64,000 nucleotides of DNA from Escherichia phage vB_EcoM_PhAPEC2: sequence record NC_024794.1; one strand, given 5' to 3'. The translations under genes and the position numbers were made by a program. Under the pieces are notes generated by a model, which saw nothing but the letters and a program-made list of their open reading frames with translations, was not told where the DNA came from and ran no database searches. Positions 1,168-9,287 of this stretch are shown here, piece by piece (the stretch's first letter is position 1; every line of letters starts with the position of its first letter).

Positions 1168-1408
1168 CTCGGTCCCATGATTTGGCCATTAATTCGGACA
1201 TAAATTCTTCAATGCGCGTTTCTTTAGACGGACTTTCACTATTAGAGACCGCAAGTTTGTAATCTGCAATAGGACGGAACAAATCAAGGTCCATATTAAG
1301 ATCGTCTTTGATTTTTTCTTCTGACACATCTTTATCGTATGTGTACAGATAACTATCACATGATTCTGATTTAATGTAAATTGCTATACTCATCTCAAAT
1401 TCCTGCAT
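1157..1408 (-). CDS. Hypothetical early protein (83 aa)
   Basis: ORF in the minus-strand early operon; start overlaps the upstream stop. Confidence 0.45.
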   Translation of the reverse strand: MQEFEMSIAIYIKSESCDSYLYTYDKDVSEEKIKDDLNMDLDLFRPIADYKLAVSNSESPSKETRIEEFMSELMAKSWDRDDE

Positions 1409-1881
1409 TCGGTAATAAAACGTTCAACTTCATTATTCTTGGCTTTTATCTTGTCTTTATGTTCTTGTAAACTACTTTTAATAAGATTAATAATGATGGC
1501 AGCGGTACCACCGCCAATGATGCCACCAACAACACTTATGATACTAGATGCTAATAAGATAGCAATAATATCAACAAAACCGAAAGAACTCACCTTAGTA
1601 CTAAAAAACCACACTGACGGTACAAATATAATCCATCCTGTTATCCATTGGCACTTATTGAAAAACTTTTCAAGCTCAGCTTGAGTTGTTCGTATTACTT
1701 CATCGATAGGTTGATATCCGTTAATGTATCTGTTCACAATAATACCTGCTGGCTGGTCGATTTTAAATTCTTGGCAAATATGTTTCACTAAGTAGGATGG
1801 ACATCCTGTCCAATCTACTGAATAGTATGAAATACCTTCATTGCCATCGTCTATATTAGACCAATATGTTTTGTTAATCAT
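1390..1881 (-). CDS. Membrane protein with C-terminal ExFIxECR tail
   Basis: Gly/Ile-rich predicted TM segment; C-terminus ERFITECRNLR; TAATG overlap with the upstream gene. Confidence 0.5.
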   Translation of the reverse strand: MINKTYWSNIDDGNEGISYYSVDWTGCPSYLVKHICQEFKIDQPAGIIVNRYINGYQPIDEVIRTTQAELEKFFNKCQWITGWIIFVPSVWFFSTKVSSFGFVDIIAILLASSIISVVGGIIGGGTAAIIINLIKSSLQEHKDKIKAKNNEVERFITECRNLR

Positions 1882-2567
1882 TACCAGCCTTCCATAGGGA
1901 ATTCCAGATAAACTTGAGCATTGACACGAATTTCATTGGTAATCTTTTTAACTCGATCTGTATTACGAGATACACGTCCGAACCAACGCCATCCGTTACT
2001 AATTGCACGAGAACCAGTGTGCCATGTTTGCCAATCAAACTGAAGAAGAGTACGGTCTGGAGCTTCCCATTTCTCTAGTTCGCCTTTTTCGATTTTTTCG
2101 AGGACTTCTTTGTGCCACTGACGATAGATAAGTTCGCCATCAGGAATCTGACTGAACTCTGCAGTTCCTGTTGCAAAATGAGTAGGACACACACCAGCGT
2201 TAACAAGACCAAGAATATGTTCAGAATGGTAACGAGGGTTGTCATAGTCAGGTTGTCCTGCAGTAATAAAGTGTTGACCAACTGGAATATCAGGGCGTGG
2301 TACGTCATCATGGTGATAGCCTGGGATTGCAGGATACCAACCAGGCATCAGCATGTGGACTCGTGAATCAAATACAACCTGGTCGGTGTTCCAATCATCA
2401 GGCAAGTTCATAATGAAAGAGCGAGTAATAGGACCGCCGTTATTATAAGCAAATTCTAAACTACAGTTGAAGAACATAGGCTCGTTCTTGATTTTATCAT
2501 TAGAAATGCTACCGGCAAAACCACCTACTGCACGAGCTTGACTATTAAACACTTTAGAACTATTCAT
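1881..2567 (-). CDS. Hypothetical protein (228 aa)
   Basis: Long ORF with His/Asp-rich segments; no family recognised. Confidence 0.5.
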   Translation of the reverse strand: MNSSKVFNSQARAVGGFAGSISNDKIKNEPMFFNCSLEFAYNNGGPITRSFIMNLPDDWNTDQVVFDSRVHMLMPGWYPAIPGYHHDDVPRPDIPVGQHFITAGQPDYDNPRYHSEHILGLVNAGVCPTHFATGTAEFSQIPDGELIYRQWHKEVLEKIEKGELEKWEAPDRTLLQFDWQTWHTGSRAISNGWRWFGRVSRNTDRVKKITNEIRVNAQVYLEFPMEGW

Positions 2568-2568
2568 A

Positions 2569-2874
2569 TTATTTTCCTCGACATTCTTTAATGAAATTTT
2601 CTAGATTGGTAGATTCAATAGCTTTTTTACGAGCTTCTGCGTGTTCTTCTTCAGACAATTTACGTTTATAATTGACCCAGACATTATGGTCTAAACCAGT
2701 TGTGGCATATAATATCAAAGCTCCGACGAATAATAAAAACGGTGATAAAAATATACAACCAGGAACACCATCCATACTGTAAGCCTTTTGTAATACGGCA
2801 ACAGAAAGAGCTGCGTAAAAAAGCGATGCAAATATTGTAAAAAGACCGATTCGGTTGGTTTCGCCTAATTTCAT
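2569..2874 (-). CDS. Small membrane protein with C-terminal ENFIKECR tail
   Basis: Two hydrophobic segments; C-terminus ENFIKECRGK; early promoter cassette upstream at 2903-2931. Confidence 0.55.
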   Translation of the reverse strand: MKLGETNRIGLFTIFASLFYAALSVAVLQKAYSMDGVPGCIFLSPFLLFVGALILYATTGLDHNVWVNYKRKLSEEEHAEARKKAIESTNLENFIKECRGK

Positions 2875-2902
2875 AATATTCTCCTCATGTTTTAATAGGA
2901 CT

Positions 2903-2931
2903 ACTATAACATAGTCCTATAATTGTGTAAA
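2903..2931 (-). promoter_or_regulatory. Early promoter cassette (PeSL-like) with palindrome
   Basis: Minus strand: TTTACA, 17 bp, TATAGT; the -10 is embedded in palindrome ATAGGACTA-N7-TAGTCCTAT. Confidence 0.6.
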
Positions 2932-2944
2932 CAGTTTTGTGAAG

Positions 2945-3901
2945 TTATTTGAAAGGTTTTACCATATGGAAATTTTGTTTGAAACGTTTTACGTAATCGT
3001 CGTGTCCTAAGCTTTGGTACATACTTACAACTTTGCTGTAGTTTTCCCAGGCGTATTCACGGAACCAACCGGAGGTGATGCTTGTGCAGACTTTTTCTAA
3101 TGCCATCATGAAACTGGCTTCAGGGTTAATTTTAAAGTCATTAGGAATCTGAGAACGTTCTAACGCTAGTACACATGATTCTTCGTATACACCGGCCAAT
3201 TTGACCATTTCTGGTAACGATTCGAACTTCTCGCGTGAGGTCATGACTTCAGAACCGTCTTTCATGTAAAACGTATAAGCCGGACGGTCTGTTAGTGCAA
3301 TGGCTTCATGAATAGTATCATGGTCATATGTATAGATGTCATCTTTAAAGAACGCACTTTTAGAAGTGTCAAGAACTGGGTGAGCATAGTTCAAAGTTTC
3401 TTTCTGGCGTTTCAGCATAATTTCAGTAAGTTCATCGTTCAGTGTAACACCTTTACCACGAAGATACTGGATATGGTTCATAGTCTTTAAAAAGAATGGA
3501 TTATTTTTCTTGAAACGATGAGACATTTTAATTGCAAGACATATCTCAGGAGTTGCCCAGTAAAACCCGGTCAAACGATCTTTAGTCAAATTTTTCTTGG
3601 CGTATTTTAAAAGGTCATAAGAAGACGTGAAATCTTCAGGAGTGAGTTCGCCGATTAATTCACGGACATTAGTGATTGCCGGAACAATATACGCTTCAAA
3701 ATGAGTTTCGCGTCCGTTATGGAAGCATTTGAAAACTTGGACATCAGGGTTATCTTGGTGAACATATACACCCATCATTTGATTTTTGAATGCATTCCAA
3801 GAACATTGGTCTGCAATAAAGTCCCAGTCACTATTTTTGATAGCGTTAGAATCAATAAGACCATGATAGTGAAGTGCACGAGAACCAATAACTAACATCA
3901 T
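2945..3901 (-). CDS. Putative Pol-beta-superfamily nucleotidyltransferase (318 aa)
   Basis: N-terminal hGS...SDxDh signature (VIGSRALHYHGLIDSNAIKNSDWDFIA) typical of minimal nucleotidyltransferases; no T4 counterpart recalled. Confidence 0.5.
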   Translation of the reverse strand: MMLVIGSRALHYHGLIDSNAIKNSDWDFIADQCSWNAFKNQMMGVYVHQDNPDVQVFKCFHNGRETHFEAYIVPAITNVRELIGELTPEDFTSSYDLLKYAKKNLTKDRLTGFYWATPEICLAIKMSHRFKKNNPFFLKTMNHIQYLRGKGVTLNDELTEIMLKRQKETLNYAHPVLDTSKSAFFKDDIYTYDHDTIHEAIALTDRPAYTFYMKDGSEVMTSREKFESLPEMVKLAGVYEESCVLALERSQIPNDFKINPEASFMMALEKVCTSITSGWFREYAWENYSKVVSMYQSLGHDDYVKRFKQNFHMVKPFK

Positions 3902-3929
3902 AATATTTTCCTCGGATTAATTCATTAAC

Positions 3930-4169
3930 TTAAATTTCACGACATGCGATATTATATTCATCCCAGAGGTCATCATGTGAAGCCTCTACCAATGGAACGA
4001 TTGTACCGTTTATGTCTTCATTATAAGGGCAAATTGTACAGTGCGCGTCTTCGAATCGGATGCCTTTGTGTTCAGATTTTTTATAACGCATATCGAATAT
4101 CTTTGCAAACTTTTCACGAGTAATGGTTTTAGCAACCACTTTGGTTCCAATACTTTCGTAATAAATCAT
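3930..4169 (-). CDS. Hypothetical early protein (79 aa)
   Basis: ORF directly downstream of the early promoter cassette at 4198-4226. Confidence 0.45.
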   Translation of the reverse strand: MIYYESIGTKVVAKTITREKFAKIFDMRYKKSEHKGIRFEDAHCTICPYNEDINGTIVPLVEASHDDLWDEYNIACREI

Positions 4170-4197
4170 TGTGGACTCCGTTTAATTTGATAGGACT

Positions 4198-4226
4198 ACT
4201 ATAACATAGCCCTATCTTGTTGTAAA
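4198..4226 (-). promoter_or_regulatory. Early promoter cassette (PeSL-like)
   Basis: Same architecture and near-identical sequence to 2903-2931 and 11747-11775. Confidence 0.6.
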
Positions 4227-4231
4227 CTGTT

Positions 4232-4429
4232 TTAGCAAGAATAACTAGATGATACCCAGCCTTGAACAGTGATACTATTGTGGGATAATGAGATCGCGTC
4301 CTGGAGATTCAGACCTGCGTTATCTTCAATCCATAATGTAACTTCTTCGCGTTCTTCTGTTGCAATTTGGAACAGGTTTTCCAGGGCAGCTACTGCCGTA
4401 CGTACAGCACAATCTAATTCACGAGACAT
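4232..4429 (-). CDS. Paralog family member, C-terminus GWVSSSYSC
   Basis: Third of three tandem paralogs ending GxWVxSSxxC-stop. Confidence 0.5.
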   Translation of the reverse strand: MSRELDCAVRTAVAALENLFQIATEEREEVTLWIEDNAGLNLQDAISLSHNSITVQGWVSSSYSC

Positions 4430-4438
4430 ATGATTTCC

Positions 4439-4711
4439 TTAACAAGTGTGAGAAGATGCAACCCAACCACCAGTTTCGAGGCTCAGGTTGTAGTCGTATT
4501 GGTAAACGTCGGCCCATTCAGCATAGCCGTTTTTTGTACAACGTTCAAGATCGGCTTTAAGATGTCCTGGTGAATGATAGGTTCCACCCATACCATAAGC
4601 TGGGTACAAGTCGAATGTTGTGTTTTGTTTATCAGCAATTTCTTTGGCAGCCTCAATAGCTGCATAGATTTTTGCTACGGCTTCAGCCAGTTCGGTTTGT
4701 TCTTTAGACAT
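4439..4711 (-). CDS. Paralog family member, C-terminus GGWVASSHTC
   Basis: Shares GGTYHSPG and C-terminal motifs with 4721-5026; the conserved codons differ at synonymous sites. Confidence 0.55.
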   Translation of the reverse strand: MSKEQTELAEAVAKIYAAIEAAKEIADKQNTTFDLYPAYGMGGTYHSPGHLKADLERCTKNGYAEWADVYQYDYNLSLETGGWVASSHTC

Positions 4712-4720
4712 AATGATTCC

Positions 4721-5026
4721 TTAGCACAACGCAGAAGACGAAACCCAAGCACCTTCAGTAATAACGTAACCATTACCTTCACGCTTAACATCGCCACCAT
4801 TATTTTCAATTTCATCTTTCATCCACTGGGATACGATTTCACCCTTAGGATAATAAGTACGACCGCTACCATAATCACCTACAGAAAATGATACGGCATA
4901 TTGGTCTGCGATCTTTGTTGCTTCTTCTTCGATACGTTCAGCTTGATTCAGAAGTTTATAAATTGCATCTGAAGCGGATTTGGCATCATTAAACTCTGGT
5001 ACTTTAATTTCAATAATCTTACTCAT
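4721..5026 (-). CDS. Paralog family member, C-terminus GAWVSSSALC
   Basis: Shares GRTYYPKG and C-terminal motifs; start overlaps the upstream stop (ATGA). Confidence 0.55.
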   Translation of the reverse strand: MSKIIEIKVPEFNDAKSASDAIYKLLNQAERIEEEATKIADQYAVSFSVGDYGSGRTYYPKGEIVSQWMKDEIENNGGDVKREGNGYVITEGAWVSSSALC

Positions 5027-5382
5027 TTTCTACATTCCTTAATAAAGTTTTCAATTGTTTCATTTTCACGTCTAGCTAGGAGTTCATTATAACTAATCAT
5101 TTGAGAAGCGTAAACCTTTTTATTTTTCTTGTTATGGTTTATAAAATCGTAGTAAAAATAGACTACAGTACAAAATGATGCGATGGATGCAAAGGCTTGG
5201 GTGTATCTTAGGTCCTGCCATTGGTCTGTGAATCCACCGGTATTCCCTATAAATCCTAACACAACTCCGTCAATAAGAAATCCAACTAATCCAAAGGCAA
5301 ATCCCATGCCAATACTCATAATAAAAATTAGAATGTTCTCACCAAGAGACGGCCATACGGTTAAGAGTTGAGGCTTTTGCAT
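5023..5382 (-). CDS. Small membrane protein with C-terminal ENFIKECRK tail
   Basis: N-terminal TM helices, charged C-terminal half, terminal ENFIKECRK. Confidence 0.55.
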   Translation of the reverse strand: MQKPQLLTVWPSLGENILIFIMSIGMGFAFGLVGFLIDGVVLGFIGNTGGFTDQWQDLRYTQAFASIASFCTVVYFYYDFINHNKKNKKVYASQMISYNELLARRENETIENFIKECRK

Positions 5383-5756
5383 CTTATTTCCTTAACGAAT
5401 TCCATAGCTTCTTCATATTCATATTTTTTAACAGCTTCATCATACTGAGCTTGGGCTTTTGCGCACTGAACTTTCCACTCGCGAACTCGAGCTCTGTGAT
5501 GACGGCCTTGGTGCCAATATCCTGCCCAATTAATAGGCATTAATAAAAACGGTACAATAAGTGGTGCGACGAACATTAATGAAAACGCTGCATCAGACGA
5601 TATAACTTTATTGGAATCTAAAATAGCTCCTATAATCATAAAGATTAAAAATGCTAAAGCTAAAATAGGGCCAAATAGTACTTCGTTTGGGATTAATTTA
5701 CGTTTGTATTCGTATGCCCATGGCTTAATTGGCATGTACAGGGTTGGCTTTGACAT
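5361..5756 (-). CDS. Small membrane protein with EFVKEIRC tail
   Basis: Likely ATG at 5756 (MSKPTLYM...; the track starts at a TTG at 5786); two TM segments. Confidence 0.5.
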   Translation of the reverse strand: MSKPTLYMPIKPWAYEYKRKLIPNEVLFGPILALAFLIFMIIGAILDSNKVISSDAAFSLMFVAPLIVPFLLMPINWAGYWHQGRHHRARVREWKVQCAKAQAQYDEAVKKYEYEEAMEFVKEIRCKSLNS

Positions 5757-6327
5757 ATTCTCTACATTCCATAATAAATTGCTCAAGGATTAAATTGTTA
5801 GTGAAATTAGGACTAACAACCATAGTTTCATAAAGCGCATCAATAGCACTTAAAGCATCAACTCTTTTAAGCAAAGGCTTGCCTTCATACATAGTTTCAG
5901 AATCGACGATTAACGTAAAGTAATATTTTTTATTATCGACTAGAACTTCTGTGTCGATATAAAACATATTAGACCTCAGAAGCTTATCTCTAAAACCATA
6001 ATAATCTTCTGAACGTTCGCTGATATATTCCAATTCAGTGTTTAAACAACAAACAGACCACGTAGGAGCAACGAAATCAGTGAATCTAATATCATGGTCT
6101 GCAACTAGTTTAGCAATAGCTCCGATATCATGAATCATAATACCTGGGGCTAATAAAGATTTTCTGCTATGGCTAGCAGTTTTCTCAGTGGTCTCATAAG
6201 AAGCTGACCAGTACCATTTACGTCCGGTTGCAACATATCGTAATGAATCAACTAAAGACGTAGGTGGATTTACCTTATCTCGGAACTCTTCGAACATTGA
6301 GTCAATATCATTATTTTGGTTTCGCAT
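5725..6327 (-). CDS. Hypothetical protein with C-terminal EQFIMECR motif
   Basis: Likely start MRNQNN at 6327 with an AAGGAG Shine-Dalgarno; the track start at 6372 lies inside the terminator hairpin. Confidence 0.5.
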   Translation of the reverse strand: MRNQNNDIDSMFEEFRDKVNPPTSLVDSLRYVATGRKWYWSASYETTEKTASHSRKSLLAPGIMIHDIGAIAKLVADHDIRFTDFVAPTWSVCCLNTELEYISERSEDYYGFRDKLLRSNMFYIDTEVLVDNKKYYFTLIVDSETMYEGKPLLKRVDALSAIDALYETMVVSPNFTNNLILEQFIMECREYVKANPVHAN

Positions 6328-6344: not shown

Positions 6345-6368
6345 CCAAAAGGAGGACCGGAGTCCTCC
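6345..6368 (-). terminator. Rho-independent terminator
   Basis: GGAGGAC-UCCG-GUCCUCC hairpin followed by UUUUGG on the minus strand. Confidence 0.6.
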
Positions 6369-6376
6369 GCATTATT

Positions 6377-6985
6377 TTATTTCAAAGAGTTAATATATTC
6401 TTGTACATCAGCAGAAGTGGTTTCGACACCGGCTGGAGTGCCATTGAACGTTTCAACACGAGTCAGAGTGTCTTCGATATCAACCTTAGTCAGTGCAGCG
6501 ATTTCAATTACATCATCGGCTGTAGAGATACCAAGGGCATTGGCTGCTCGAGTTTCACGAATGTATTCGAGTTTAATTGCCAGGTTCTGACGAGCATCGT
6601 CAAGTTCAACCACCTTACGAGCAATTTCAATTCGCATAGCGGCATACCCGTCGGCTTTTGTATTAAGTTGTTCGGCAGTTCGACGATACAGAAGACCAAG
6701 TTTAGCATGCATAGTAACATCTTGTCCTTCAGCCAGGAGCTTGCGAATTTCACGTTCCTTAGAAGCGGCTTGCTTGTTCTTTTCATTAACAAGTTCGCGA
6801 ATACGTTTTTCTTCATTAATAGATTTAACAGAAGCCGTTTTTAGTTCTTTGATTTGGGTAATCAACTTATCTGCAGCTGCGTTATACTGTTCTTCGACAG
6901 TCAGATTTTTAGCCATAGCAGTACCCAGTTTAGTGCGGATGAATTCAACAAGTTTCTTCAGTGTGTTCATATTATTACCTTTCAA
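6377..6985 (-). CDS. Coiled-coil protein, possibly PspA/IM30-like
   Basis: About 200 aa, predicted all-helical with heptad-like charged repeats and a PspA-like N-terminal pattern; weak call. Confidence 0.3.
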
Positions 6986-7011: not shown

Positions 7012-7040
7012 ATTATACTCTGCTCTCAAGAGTTTGTAAA
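7012..7040 (-). promoter_or_regulatory. Early promoter
   Basis: Minus strand: TTTACA, 17 bp, TATAAT, with inverted repeat GAGAGC/GCTCTC around the -10; upstream of 6377-6985. Confidence 0.55.
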
Positions 7041-8003: not shown

Positions 8004-8032
8004 ATAGTACCACGGAAGAACAGGGATGTAAA
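8004..8032 (-). promoter_or_regulatory. Early promoter cassette
   Basis: Minus strand: TTTACA, 17 bp, TGgTACTAT. Confidence 0.55.
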
Positions 8033-8135: not shown

Positions 8136-8699
8136 TTATTTACCTAGTTTAGTTATTATAGCTTCGGCAGCAGCTTTTAGCTTAGATGCAGTGTTAATAC
8201 GATTTTTAATTTCAGTATACGCATCGCCAAGAACATCAAGGCTATCAGAATAAACACTTACACTATTGCGTTCGCTATTTGAAATAGAACCTTTAGTTTT
8301 ACGATCAAAATCAGTGTACACGTCTTGAAGATCACGGGCTGCCTTCTTTGCATCATCCAATGCGTCAAGAGCTTTATTCAAAGCATTGACATATTTTTTA
8401 GTGTCAAACATATTCTTAGAAATTTTAACAGGTGCACGTTCAGGAGTAGCTAAGGCGGATTTAGGAACCTGCGTGCCAGATGCCAGTTTCTTAGAAATTT
8501 TGAAAAACGCTTTATTGAAACTATTTTCTTGACTCATCGTAAAAGAACTAGTATCGATGTTATACATTTCAATAGCTTTAGCTTTCCACTTAAGAAAATC
8601 GCCACGGTCTTTTGGATCCAAGTGGAAGAATACTTTAGTAAGATCTGCTTCAGATGGTAATTTTGCTGCTTCGGTTAAAAATTCGGCATAGGTTTTCAT
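8136..8699 (-). CDS. Internal-protein-like (capsid-targeted) protein, 187 aa
   Basis: N-terminus MKTYAEFLTE|A matches the IP capsid-targeting sequence and gp21 L-x-E cleavage pattern; followed by a rho-independent terminator. Confidence 0.6.
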   Translation of the reverse strand: MKTYAEFLTEAAKLPSEADLTKVFFHLDPKDRGDFLKWKAKAIEMYNIDTSSFTMSQENSFNKAFFKISKKLASGTQVPKSALATPERAPVKISKNMFDTKKYVNALNKALDALDDAKKAARDLQDVYTDFDRKTKGSISNSERNSVSVYSDSLDVLGDAYTEIKNRINTASKLKAAAEAIITKLGK

Positions 8700-8822: not shown

Positions 8823-9287
8823 TTATTTAATTTGTTTAGCAGACCAGATACGGTCTTTAATAAGTTTTTGGATATCTTCAACATACTCAAGGCTATGAGC
8901 GTGAGGATTATCTTTGAAGCTATGTGCTCGTGCCAGTTTCTGGCCTTCTGTTTTGATTACTAAAAGCTCTTTAAGAATTGCTTCATACTTAGAAATAATT
9001 CCTTTGGCGATATTTTTTTCTTGAGCGGCTTTAGGGTCCGCTTTTGGCACAGGTGCTTTACCTGTAGCTTTCTGGAACAATTCACCTGATGCAGCTAGGC
9101 TTTTAAAAACTCGGCTAACAGTATTAGCATTAGTAAAACCTTCGGCTTTAAAATCTCTAATAAAACGGAAACGTTCTTCATCAGAGGCGTCTTTGTAAGA
9201 ATATTTACCTGCTTGAATTGCTGCAATCGCAGCGGCTTTTACATCTGAACTAGATTGTTCAGTCAAAAATTCAGCGTATGATTTCAT
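8823..9287 (-). CDS. Internal-protein-like (capsid-targeted) protein, 154 aa
   Basis: N-terminus MKSYAEFLTE|Q; same terminator hairpin downstream as the neighbouring ip-like gene. Confidence 0.6.
   Translation of the reverse strand: MKSYAEFLTEQSSSDVKAAAIAAIQAGKYSYKDASDEERFRFIRDFKAEGFTNANTVSRVFKSLAASGELFQKATGKAPVPKADPKAAQEKNIAKGIISKYEAILKELLVIKTEGQKLARAHSFKDNPHAHSLEYVEDIQKLIKDRIWSAKQIK

Follow-up and report, generated by a model that had tools for sequence, protein, structure and literature searches.

Bacteriophage T4 is the best-studied virulent phage, and for decades its genes e.2 to e.6 have stood without a function or a unifying feature. Their conservation extends over more than 1,000 sequenced phages, which infect Escherichia, Klebsiella, Shigella, Yersinia, Citrobacter, Enterobacter and Aeromonas. 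What their products might have in common is a question raised by a stretch of 64,000 nucleotides (nt) from Escherichia phage vB_EcoM_PhAPEC2 (sequence record NC_024794.1), hereafter the window, which was analysed at its full length. The window represents a Mosigvirus, a JS98-like T4-type phage, and is 97.7% identical to phage ChristianSchoenbein across this stretch. A preliminary description, made from the letters alone, had noticed that several proteins encoded here end in a common tail, E-x-F-I-x-E-C-R, and had proposed that the peptide itself was under selection, perhaps as an interaction, targeting or degradation tag.

The motif is real, statistically overwhelming and conserved far past the window. 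It amounts to a nine-residue tag that makes one testable system of some two dozen families that look unrelated and of almost all the membrane proteins of one gene cluster. Judged on sequence and on structural models, the tail would best be understood as a common docking or assembly helix for a shared partner, a reading to which we give a probability of about 0.5. The motif is apparently undescribed: literature searches on T4 e.2-e.6, on phage-encoded PspA or ESCRT-III and for the peptide strings brought up no account of it.

A common tail on five proteins of the window

A six-frame regular-expression scan of all 64 kb for E.FI.ECR gave exactly four matches, all on the minus strand and each 1-11 amino acids (aa) ahead of the stop of its open reading frame (ORF); fewer than 0.01 would be expected from residue frequencies over all six frames. 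The tripeptide ECR has five further occurrences across the six frames, none in a long ORF. The scan confirms that the tail stands on four genes, with a weaker fifth, as first described. The genes, lettered A to E, and their motifs are as follows.

1390-1881, minus strand: gene A, T4 e.2 homolog, 163 aa, phrog_2203; tail ...NNEVERFITECRNLR at the stop
1402-1425, minus strand: codons of the gene A motif ERFITECR, 3 aa ahead of the stop
2569-2874, minus strand: gene B, 101 aa, two transmembrane (TM) segments, phrog_9798; tail ...STNLENFIKECRGK at the stop
2578-2601, minus strand: codons of the gene B motif ENFIKECR, 2 aa ahead of the stop
5023-5382, minus strand: gene C, T4 e.3 homolog, membrane protein of 119 aa, phrog_2330; tail ...NETIENFIKECRK at the stop
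5029-5052, minus strand: codons of the gene C motif ENFIKECR, 1 aa ahead of the stop
5361-5756, minus strand: gene E, T4 e.4 homolog, 131 aa, two TM segments, phrog_2604; tail ...EAMEFVKEIRCKSLNS at the stop
5382-5405, minus strand: codons of the gene E variant motif EFVKEIRC, in which Ile replaces Cys and a Cys follows two residues further on
5725-6327, minus strand: gene D, T4 e.5 homolog, 200 aa, soluble; tail ...NLILEQFIMECREYVKANPVHAN at the stop
5761-5784, minus strand: codons of the gene D motif EQFIMECR, 11 aa ahead of the stop

Hydropathy predicts TM segments (one or two, or more) for A, B, C and E and none for D, in agreement with the original count of four membrane proteins and one soluble protein of 200 aa. 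Gene A illustrates the layout, with a soluble N-terminal part, two predicted TM segments and a charged stalk preceding the tail. Gene E ends in the weaker tail MEFVKEIRCKSLNS, and its final codons overlap the start of gene C. The five proteins belong to five separate PHROG families, each unassigned in function, and no pair retains BLASTP similarity once the tails are trimmed. The carriers can therefore be called otherwise unrelated, as proposed, and this holds at the profile level too, with the caveat that gene B, tail included, weakly matches the PHROG family of gene A (E 2.8e-4). Scans of A-E against Pfam, NCBIfam and PADLOC gave no meaningful match; Pfam family PF26876 is reported as a precomputed assignment for homologs of gene D.

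Coupling of the carriers to the genes that follow them was likewise correctly noted: at the window junctions the next start codon lies 0-13 nt past the motif or overlaps the tail. Both e.3 (MQKPQL...) and e.4 (MSKPTL...) begin, in another frame, inside the tail of the gene before them (window 5361-5405 and 5725-5760, minus strand), and their similar N-termini, M-x-K-P-x-L, hint that the two may be old paralogs.

Distribution among T4-like phages

For a survey of tails, 36 IMG/VR loci were fetched using e.6 as the anchor, and about 45 further T4-like loci were considered in all. With the C-terminal tail defined as the last 22 aa, the pattern [FWY][IVL]..C[RK] was found in 130 coding-strand tails of the 36 IMG/VR loci, as against 4 occurrences in 215,751 internal residues and 11 opposite-strand tails. 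A regex match in thymidine kinase (YVSLCRKHW) was judged a false positive. The consensus of 76 non-redundant tails is phi(-3)-[E/N/D](-2)-x-[F/W](0)-[I/V](+1)-x-x-C(+4)-[R/K](+5), phi being a hydrophobic residue, which is present at -3 in 70 of the 76; W stands for F in four tails and K for R in six, and acidic residues are favoured at -2 and +3. The peptide as first described thus stands in its core, phi-x-x-F-[IV]-x-x-C-[RK], and not in its two Glu, which are typical of coliphage genera only.

Orthologs from AR1 (Tequatrovirus), VR5 (Dhakavirus), Klebsiella phage EI (Marfavirus) and Citrobacter phage Moon all have the tail. Among relatives it reads, up to the stop codon, NNFITECRKLK, EEFVSDCRKIK, NDFIEECRK, ANWIKGCRK, NRFIKYCRGKHVS, KNFINSCRIIK or DDFINLCRDELKVKE, and in T4 itself KEFVIDCRKIK (e.3), MKFVKESRCKSQS (e.4) and EKFVKECREYVKAITIPSK (e.5). 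Some families replace the Cys by V, I, M, L or S, a substitution that occurs even inside one family (TELFIKNVRRK versus LLTFIENCKNEK); the e.4 family, gene E included, is such a variant-tail family. The motif lies 0-27 aa from the stop and its Cys 1-28 residues from the end, the trailing residues being variable and mostly polar or basic. Lipidation of the CaaX type was rejected, since it needs a Cys exactly four from the end and two aliphatic residues, and here the Cys is followed by R or K at varying distances from the end.

BLAST clustering of carriers with their tails removed places the strict tail on about 24 families. Profile-profile comparison of the tail-less bodies by hhalign, the sensitivity of which is restricted by shallow alignments, joins the e.5-like groups only (75% probability, 152 columns), and the membrane families give short, weak matches at most. 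Ancient paralogy may still link some of the two-TM families, in which case the tail would be the sole part held by selection. A hidden Markov model (HMM) of the four window tails, run against 1.84 billion representative proteins, listed five matches (E <= 0.001), none of which extends the motif past T4-like phages; two were below 1e-10, all but one were short, and they were taken for orthologs without inspection.

The motif is also a practical annotation marker for the cluster, and it revealed that e.2 in the T4 reference genome (NC_000866, 492-961; 102 aa) is a truncated gene. A 161-nt unannotated gap before nudE still codes, past in-frame stops, for ...IEMPWRLRRQQKIFDEKKYAQNLNNFITECRKLK and a stop, the C-terminal part of the 162-aa e.2 of relatives. 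On one IMG/VR contig (L032, 10656-11324) an e.5-like gene lies in three ORF pieces, the last of which keeps the tail ADVSDFINYCRGQ...; this may reflect a frameshift or a sequencing error.

Selection on the peptide

Across the 76 tails third codon positions carry about 0 bits (0.04 bits at the third position of Arg). Phe is encoded by TTT in 46 cases and TTC in 26, Cys by TGT in 40 and TGC in 36, and all six Arg codons are used (AGA 23, CGT 17, AGG 14, CGA 7, CGC 7, CGG 2). The synonymous differences remarked on at the outset (aat/aac, ttc/ttt, tgt/tgc, cga/aga/agg) are present in the window codons. Minimal synonymous and non-synonymous changes within families number 6/0 at F, 8/0 at C and 8/2 at R, both of the latter being R to K, although the within-family rows were chosen by regular expression and invariance at these three positions is somewhat inflated as a result; changes in the flanking codons are mostly non-synonymous. 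An unselected alignment of e.5-like proteins from 13 clades has only four invariant columns, N96, F184, C188 and R189. Because synonymous codons vary freely, there is strong support for purifying selection on the amino acids of the tail and not on a nucleotide signal. The central claim of the preliminary description, that the peptide is the object of selection, is therefore upheld, with F/W, I/V and R/K exchanges and variable Shine-Dalgarno placement adding to the evidence of the codons.

These data bear most directly on the possibility that the conserved block is a signal in the nucleotides or in translation, such as a ribosome-binding site, a processing site, a promoter or a nascent-peptide arrest governing termination and re-initiation at coupled junctions. 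The proximity of the window motifs to the next start codon would suit such a signal, as would the sequence AAGGAA (Lys-Glu), which is the Shine-Dalgarno sequence at some junctions. However, Arg alternates between CGN and AGR, third positions are free, and the Shine-Dalgarno sequence of the next gene sits on differing codons at differing junctions; in AR1 e.3 the peptide EEFVSDCR is retained while the Shine-Dalgarno sequence shifts to another codon. The distance from motif to next start ranges from overlap to hundreds of nt, and since neither this nor the distance to the stop is fixed, a stop-linked arrest peptide is disfavoured as well. A frame-independent nucleotide element at the tails was looked for and none was found. 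The nucleotide-level reading is largely refuted, and we rate its chances as very slight indeed. Sites for RegA, RegB or MotA and promoter(early)-stem-loop (PeSL) cassettes were discounted, since nucleotides are not conserved and the genes overlap, leaving no intergenic cassette.

Alternatively, the tail might be a functionless relic, either the remnant of one ancestral protein or a junction piece kept for the translation start region of the next gene. Genes are indeed often gained and lost in this variable cluster, tails run up to the next start or overlap it, the e.5-like groups are truly related, and gene B has its weak match to the family of gene A. It is difficult to reconcile a relic, however, with a tail that is the most conserved part of each family when the bodies have diverged past recognition, with substitutions at F, C and R that are synonymous, or with the variable spacing and Shine-Dalgarno placement just described. 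Codon sharing is 0.48 between same-genome tails of different families and 0.44 between tails of different clades, both near the expectation from codon usage, and this lack of any excess within genomes implies that recent gene conversion is not behind the identity of the tails. A relic accordingly seems quite improbable to us.

Restriction to the cluster between e.6 and lysozyme

Gene e.6 is the next gene upstream of gene D, and annotated relatives place nudE and the lysozyme gene e downstream of the cluster. Gene order is kept: e.6, an e.5-like soluble protein with the tail, a two-TM protein with a variant tail, a two-TM protein with the tail, variable genes, an e.2-like two-TM protein with the tail, nudE and lysozyme. 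The tail keeps to the cluster that runs from e.6 to nudE. Of the 117 predicted TM proteins coded between e.6 and the lysozyme gene, 111 have it (72 strict, 39 variant), against 1 of 90 outside, and in a complete 169-kb Mosigvirus genome strict tails occur in the four cluster genes only. Each genome has 3-6 carriers; they comprise nearly all the small two-TM inner-membrane proteins of the cluster, the soluble e.5-like protein and a few small soluble proteins. On the membrane carriers the tail follows a segment of 15-40 residues, rich in K, R and E, past the last TM segment, and by the positive-inside rule it would be cytoplasmic.

A proposed docking helix and its candidate partner

In an AlphaFold2 (AF2) model of gene D the motif falls within a C-terminal helix (178-194), on which F184, C188 and R189 are three of the four columns invariant in the e.5-like clades. 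The tail would thus be a short amphipathic C-terminal helix, with phi, F, I/V and C at i, i+3, i+4 and i+7 making a single hydrophobic face that could insert into a shared partner. Among the suggestions first made for the tag, all of which agree with the evidence, interaction is the best-supported putative function.

An amphipathic C-terminal helix could instead lie in the plane of the membrane, as in MinD- or FtsA-type targeting, holding e.5 and the tails of the TM proteins at the bilayer. The tail is short, helical and amphipathic (hydrophobic moment 0.4-0.8), its carriers are mostly membrane proteins, and scaffolds resembling e.6 (see below) also act at membranes. Nevertheless, the window tails have a net charge of -2 to +1, against +4 for MinD, and favour acidic residues at -2 and +3; targeting helices can take a wide range of hydrophobic or basic residues, but F, C and R of the tail are almost fixed; and TM proteins need no membrane-targeting sequence. 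We consider this explanation improbable.

If the tail docks on a partner, the product of e.6 is the best candidate, and its features in the window are these.

6377-6970, minus strand: e.6 homolog, 197 aa, immediately upstream of a tail-bearing gene; candidate partner
6380-6406, minus strand: codons of the nearly invariant e.6 C-terminus V-Q-E-Y-I-N-S-L-K, with residue-class spacing like that of the tail

The strict motif is on the first ORF past e.6 in 37 of 40 loci and among the first three ORFs in 39. Loci of the Aeromonas phage 65 and 44RR type, the most distant of all, have no carriers other than one or two e.5-like genes adjoining e.6. Citrobacter phage Margaery (Pseudotevenvirus) has a 35% identical e.6 amid nrdD and nrdG genes, and there the gene after e.6 reads ...RAMEKFIHSCKKNV..., which contains AMEKFIHSCKK. 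Records that contain e.6 number 1,108 and come from phages of enterobacteria and Aeromonas, with none from the Acinetobacter T4-like group. In Acinetobacter phage Acj9 neither an e.6 homolog nor a strict tail appears among the 176 genes called in the first 100 kb.

Conservation of e.6 (55-88% identity) is far above that of the carriers. Its AF2 model (30 sequences, pLDDT 76) has an amphipathic N-terminal helix (3-22), a helical hairpin (25-80 and 86-145) and a confident terminal helix (186-196), and in a Foldseek search with this model the top eight PDB matches were all Vipp1 or PspA, aligned over the full length (best E 2.4e-4). Homologs of e.6 end in a nearly invariant [VIL]-x-[ED]-Y-[IL]-x-S-L-K. 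When a relaxed class pattern was sought in the last 12-16 aa throughout a whole Mosigvirus genome, it was met only in e.2, B, e.3, e.6 and RIII. The last of these, a lysis-inhibition accessory protein (phrog_1457; OZ035759.1, 124221-124469; not found in the window), ends in ...AVRHFVITLK and is the sole such C-terminus outside the e.6 cluster in that genome, which may be due to chance.

From these observations the following mechanism can be put forward. e.6 would be a long helical-hairpin scaffold like the PspA/Vipp1/ESCRT-III (or BAR) proteins; exchangeable small membrane adaptors would tether it to the inner membrane through tails that imitate its own terminal helix; and e.5 would join or regulate it. 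The proposal that tails dock to e.6 is a testable hypothesis built on synteny, fold-level resemblance and similarity of residue classes. That e.6 specifically is the partner we regard as tentative, a good deal less probable than docking as such. The fuller picture is more doubtful again, in which a phage-coded PspA/ESCRT-III-like scaffold, changing membrane adaptors and soluble e.5, all joined by one helix, might form a modular, early-active system for membrane remodelling or maintenance. Were e.6 a scaffold of this type recruited by tails, the phages would possess a viral version of a membrane-repair and remodelling machine, which might bear on how infected cells keep their membranes energised through infection and lysis inhibition.

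Several results weigh against e.6 as a PspA-like docking partner. Pfam scans of five e.6 homologs found no PspA_IM30, all matches being far under the curated cut-offs (best E 0.02); NCBIfam and PADLOC scans of e.6 gave nothing meaningful; a PDB sequence search returned chance matches only; and hhalign of the 30-sequence e.6 profile against E. coli PspA gave a probability of 0.2%, so that any likeness would lie at the level of the predicted fold. The strict-tail position-specific scoring matrix scores the e.6 C-terminus poorly (-2.5 bits), and the residue-class pattern that links it to the tails was defined after the data had been seen; the C-terminal resemblance is a lead, not proof. Co-occurrence of tail and e.6 is partly by design, since all but a few loci were collected through the e.6 anchor and the negative control is one genome. 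Finally, e.6 has no Cys, so a disulfide to e.6 cannot account for the near-invariant Cys of the tail, and the strong preference for Cys over the V, I, M or L that some families use is accounted for by none of the readings considered here.

The clearest rival to docking on e.6 is that the carriers bind each other, the tail helix drawing e.5 and the membrane proteins into a single homo- or hetero-oligomeric complex, such as a helical bundle with clustered Cys, with e.6 not a direct partner. There are several carriers per genome, co-transcribed from overlapping genes, each with a single Cys in its tail, and the phi/F/I/C face has heptad-like a-d-e-a spacing. On the other hand, carriers number just one or two in the distant Aeromonas-type loci and always adjoin e.6; the hydrophobic face covers merely some two helical turns; and the upstream stalks are charged, with no heptad pattern. 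Self-association of this kind is, in our estimate, unlikely.

Comparison with known systems

As putative partners of a membrane scaffold, tail carriers find a near analogy in the bacterial envelope-stress systems Psp and Lia. In E. coli PspA acts with PspB and PspC, and in B. subtilis LiaH acts with LiaI, a small anchor of two TM segments, the cytoplasmic parts of the membrane proteins recruiting the scaffold. Here too a predicted hairpin scaffold, e.6, the model of which also has short helices towards the C-terminus, is coded beside small inner-membrane proteins. The likeness of A, B, C and E to PspB, PspC and LiaI is one of architecture only (small, two TM segments, a cytoplasmic C-terminal helix); for PspB, PspC and LiaI-LiaF-TM, none of these four genes has a meaningful Pfam, NCBIfam or PADLOC match. 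Unlike PspA, e.6 lacks a PspA_IM30 sequence match, and the bacterial systems are not known to have a common C-terminal tag on many unrelated adaptors.

Such a tag recalls the MIM-MIT interactions of ESCRT-III (Vps4 and others), where a short amphipathic C-terminal helix on several proteins, paralogous or unrelated, has one common docking partner. The MIM1 motif, (D/E)xxLxxRLxxL(K/R), nevertheless differs from phi-x-x-F-[IV]-x-x-C-[RK] in spacing and fixed residues; the tail is mainly on putative partners of the scaffold and not on the scaffold alone; and no MIT-like or AAA-ATPase protein was seen in the e.6 cluster. The SHOCT domain and similar short C-terminal helical modules, which are presumed to serve oligomerisation or docking, are likewise borne by many unrelated bacterial proteins, often membrane or Psp-associated ones. 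SHOCT, however, is a bihelical domain of about 28 residues, against about nine residues and a single helix for the tail, which is moreover limited to T4-like phages; A-E have no Pfam match to SHOCT.

T4 itself offers a precedent in its capsid targeting sequence (CTS), MKTYQEFIAE, which is N-terminal, is carried by soluble internal head proteins and is cut by the prohead protease: a peptide of about ten residues on unrelated proteins of neighbouring genes that directs them to one assembly. CTS-like peptides and coliphage tails both have an E-F-[IL] core. The tail differs in being C-terminal and mostly on membrane proteins; its fixed C and R are missing from the CTS, and its Glu is unconserved outside coliphages. 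Mimicry of the CTS was rejected on account of the opposite protein end and the membrane carriers. In the window, genes whose products have CTS-like starts lie at 8136-8699 (MKTYAEFLTEA...) and 8823-9287 (MKSYAEFLTEQ...), both on the minus strand. Psp/Lia, MIM-MIT, SHOCT and the CTS may be taken as the nearest analogies to the tail, with membership in none.

Transcription and expression

Two sequence features around e.6 concern the expression of the cluster.

7012-7040, minus strand: early promoter match of T4-early type, TTTACA-17-TATAAT, 11/12, upstream of e.6; a consensus match only
6351-6368, minus strand: terminator-like hairpin, G+C-rich GGAGGACTCCGGTCCTCC followed by TTTT, between the e.6 stop and the gene D Shine-Dalgarno sequence

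The promoter match at 7040-7012 is likely to start a transcription unit running e.6 to e.5 to e.4 to e.3. At the same e.6/e.5 junction the annotation of phage Margaery has a terminator. The hairpin may set the ratio of e.6 to e.5 expression, which would fit a scaffold in excess over its adaptors. Further T4-early-type matches (TTTACA-17-TATAGT/TATAAT, by consensus only) lie on the minus strand at 2903-2931, 4198-4226, 5086-5114 and 8004-8032; one of these additional early-promoter matches sits directly upstream of gene B.

In T4, e.2-e.6 give early transcripts, and proteomics has assigned a temporal class to each of the five proteins (PMC9697503, supplementary files 4 and 6). Since the T4 proteins were detected, the T4 orthologs are translated, which counts against the possibility, raised at the outset, that these ORFs are not. 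Calling the carriers early agrees with the promoter match upstream of e.6 as well as with the T4 transcripts and proteins (PMC9697503); as a class, however, 'early proteins' is too wide, because the motif marks one cluster, T4 e.2-e.6, and not early proteins in general.

The protein classes bear on whether the tail is a degron, a turnover signal read by a host or phage protease (FtsH, Lon or ClpXP) that shortens the lifetime of early proteins. A C-terminal position on early proteins, and on proteins otherwise unrelated, is what such a signal would have. Yet e.2, e.3 and e.6 of T4 are in the middle or late protein classes, hence persisting (PMC9697503), and a general signal would not keep to one gene cluster. 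With up to 27 residues between motif and true C-terminus, and end residues that are unconserved and mostly polar or basic, the tail is also unlike ssrA-type tags; an ssrA-like degradation tag was rejected, as the tail is not at the extreme C-terminus and has no non-polar ending. We give a degron little credence.

Other genes of the cluster

Two well-conserved soluble proteins of the cluster have no tail, both on the minus strand. One, of 228 aa (window 1881-2567), ends in EFPMEGW and is also found in Aeromonas and Erwinia phages; the other, of 318 aa (2945-3901), is a DUF7277+DUF7275 protein labelled nucleotidyltransferase in Acinetobacter phages. Some GenBank records label the e.4 homolog a sulfurtransferase (L049, 4060-4455), a label that was set aside for want of Pfam or NCBIfam domain support.

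The cluster has a second conserved C-terminal Cys motif. Three tandem paralogs of phrog_4882/phrog_899 (window 4232-4429, 4439-4711 and 4721-5026, minus strand) end in G-x-W-V-S-S-S-x-x-C, their endings being WVSSSYSC, WVASSHTC and WVSSSALC. VR5, EI and Moon have 3-5 copies of this family, in which the Cys is always the last residue.

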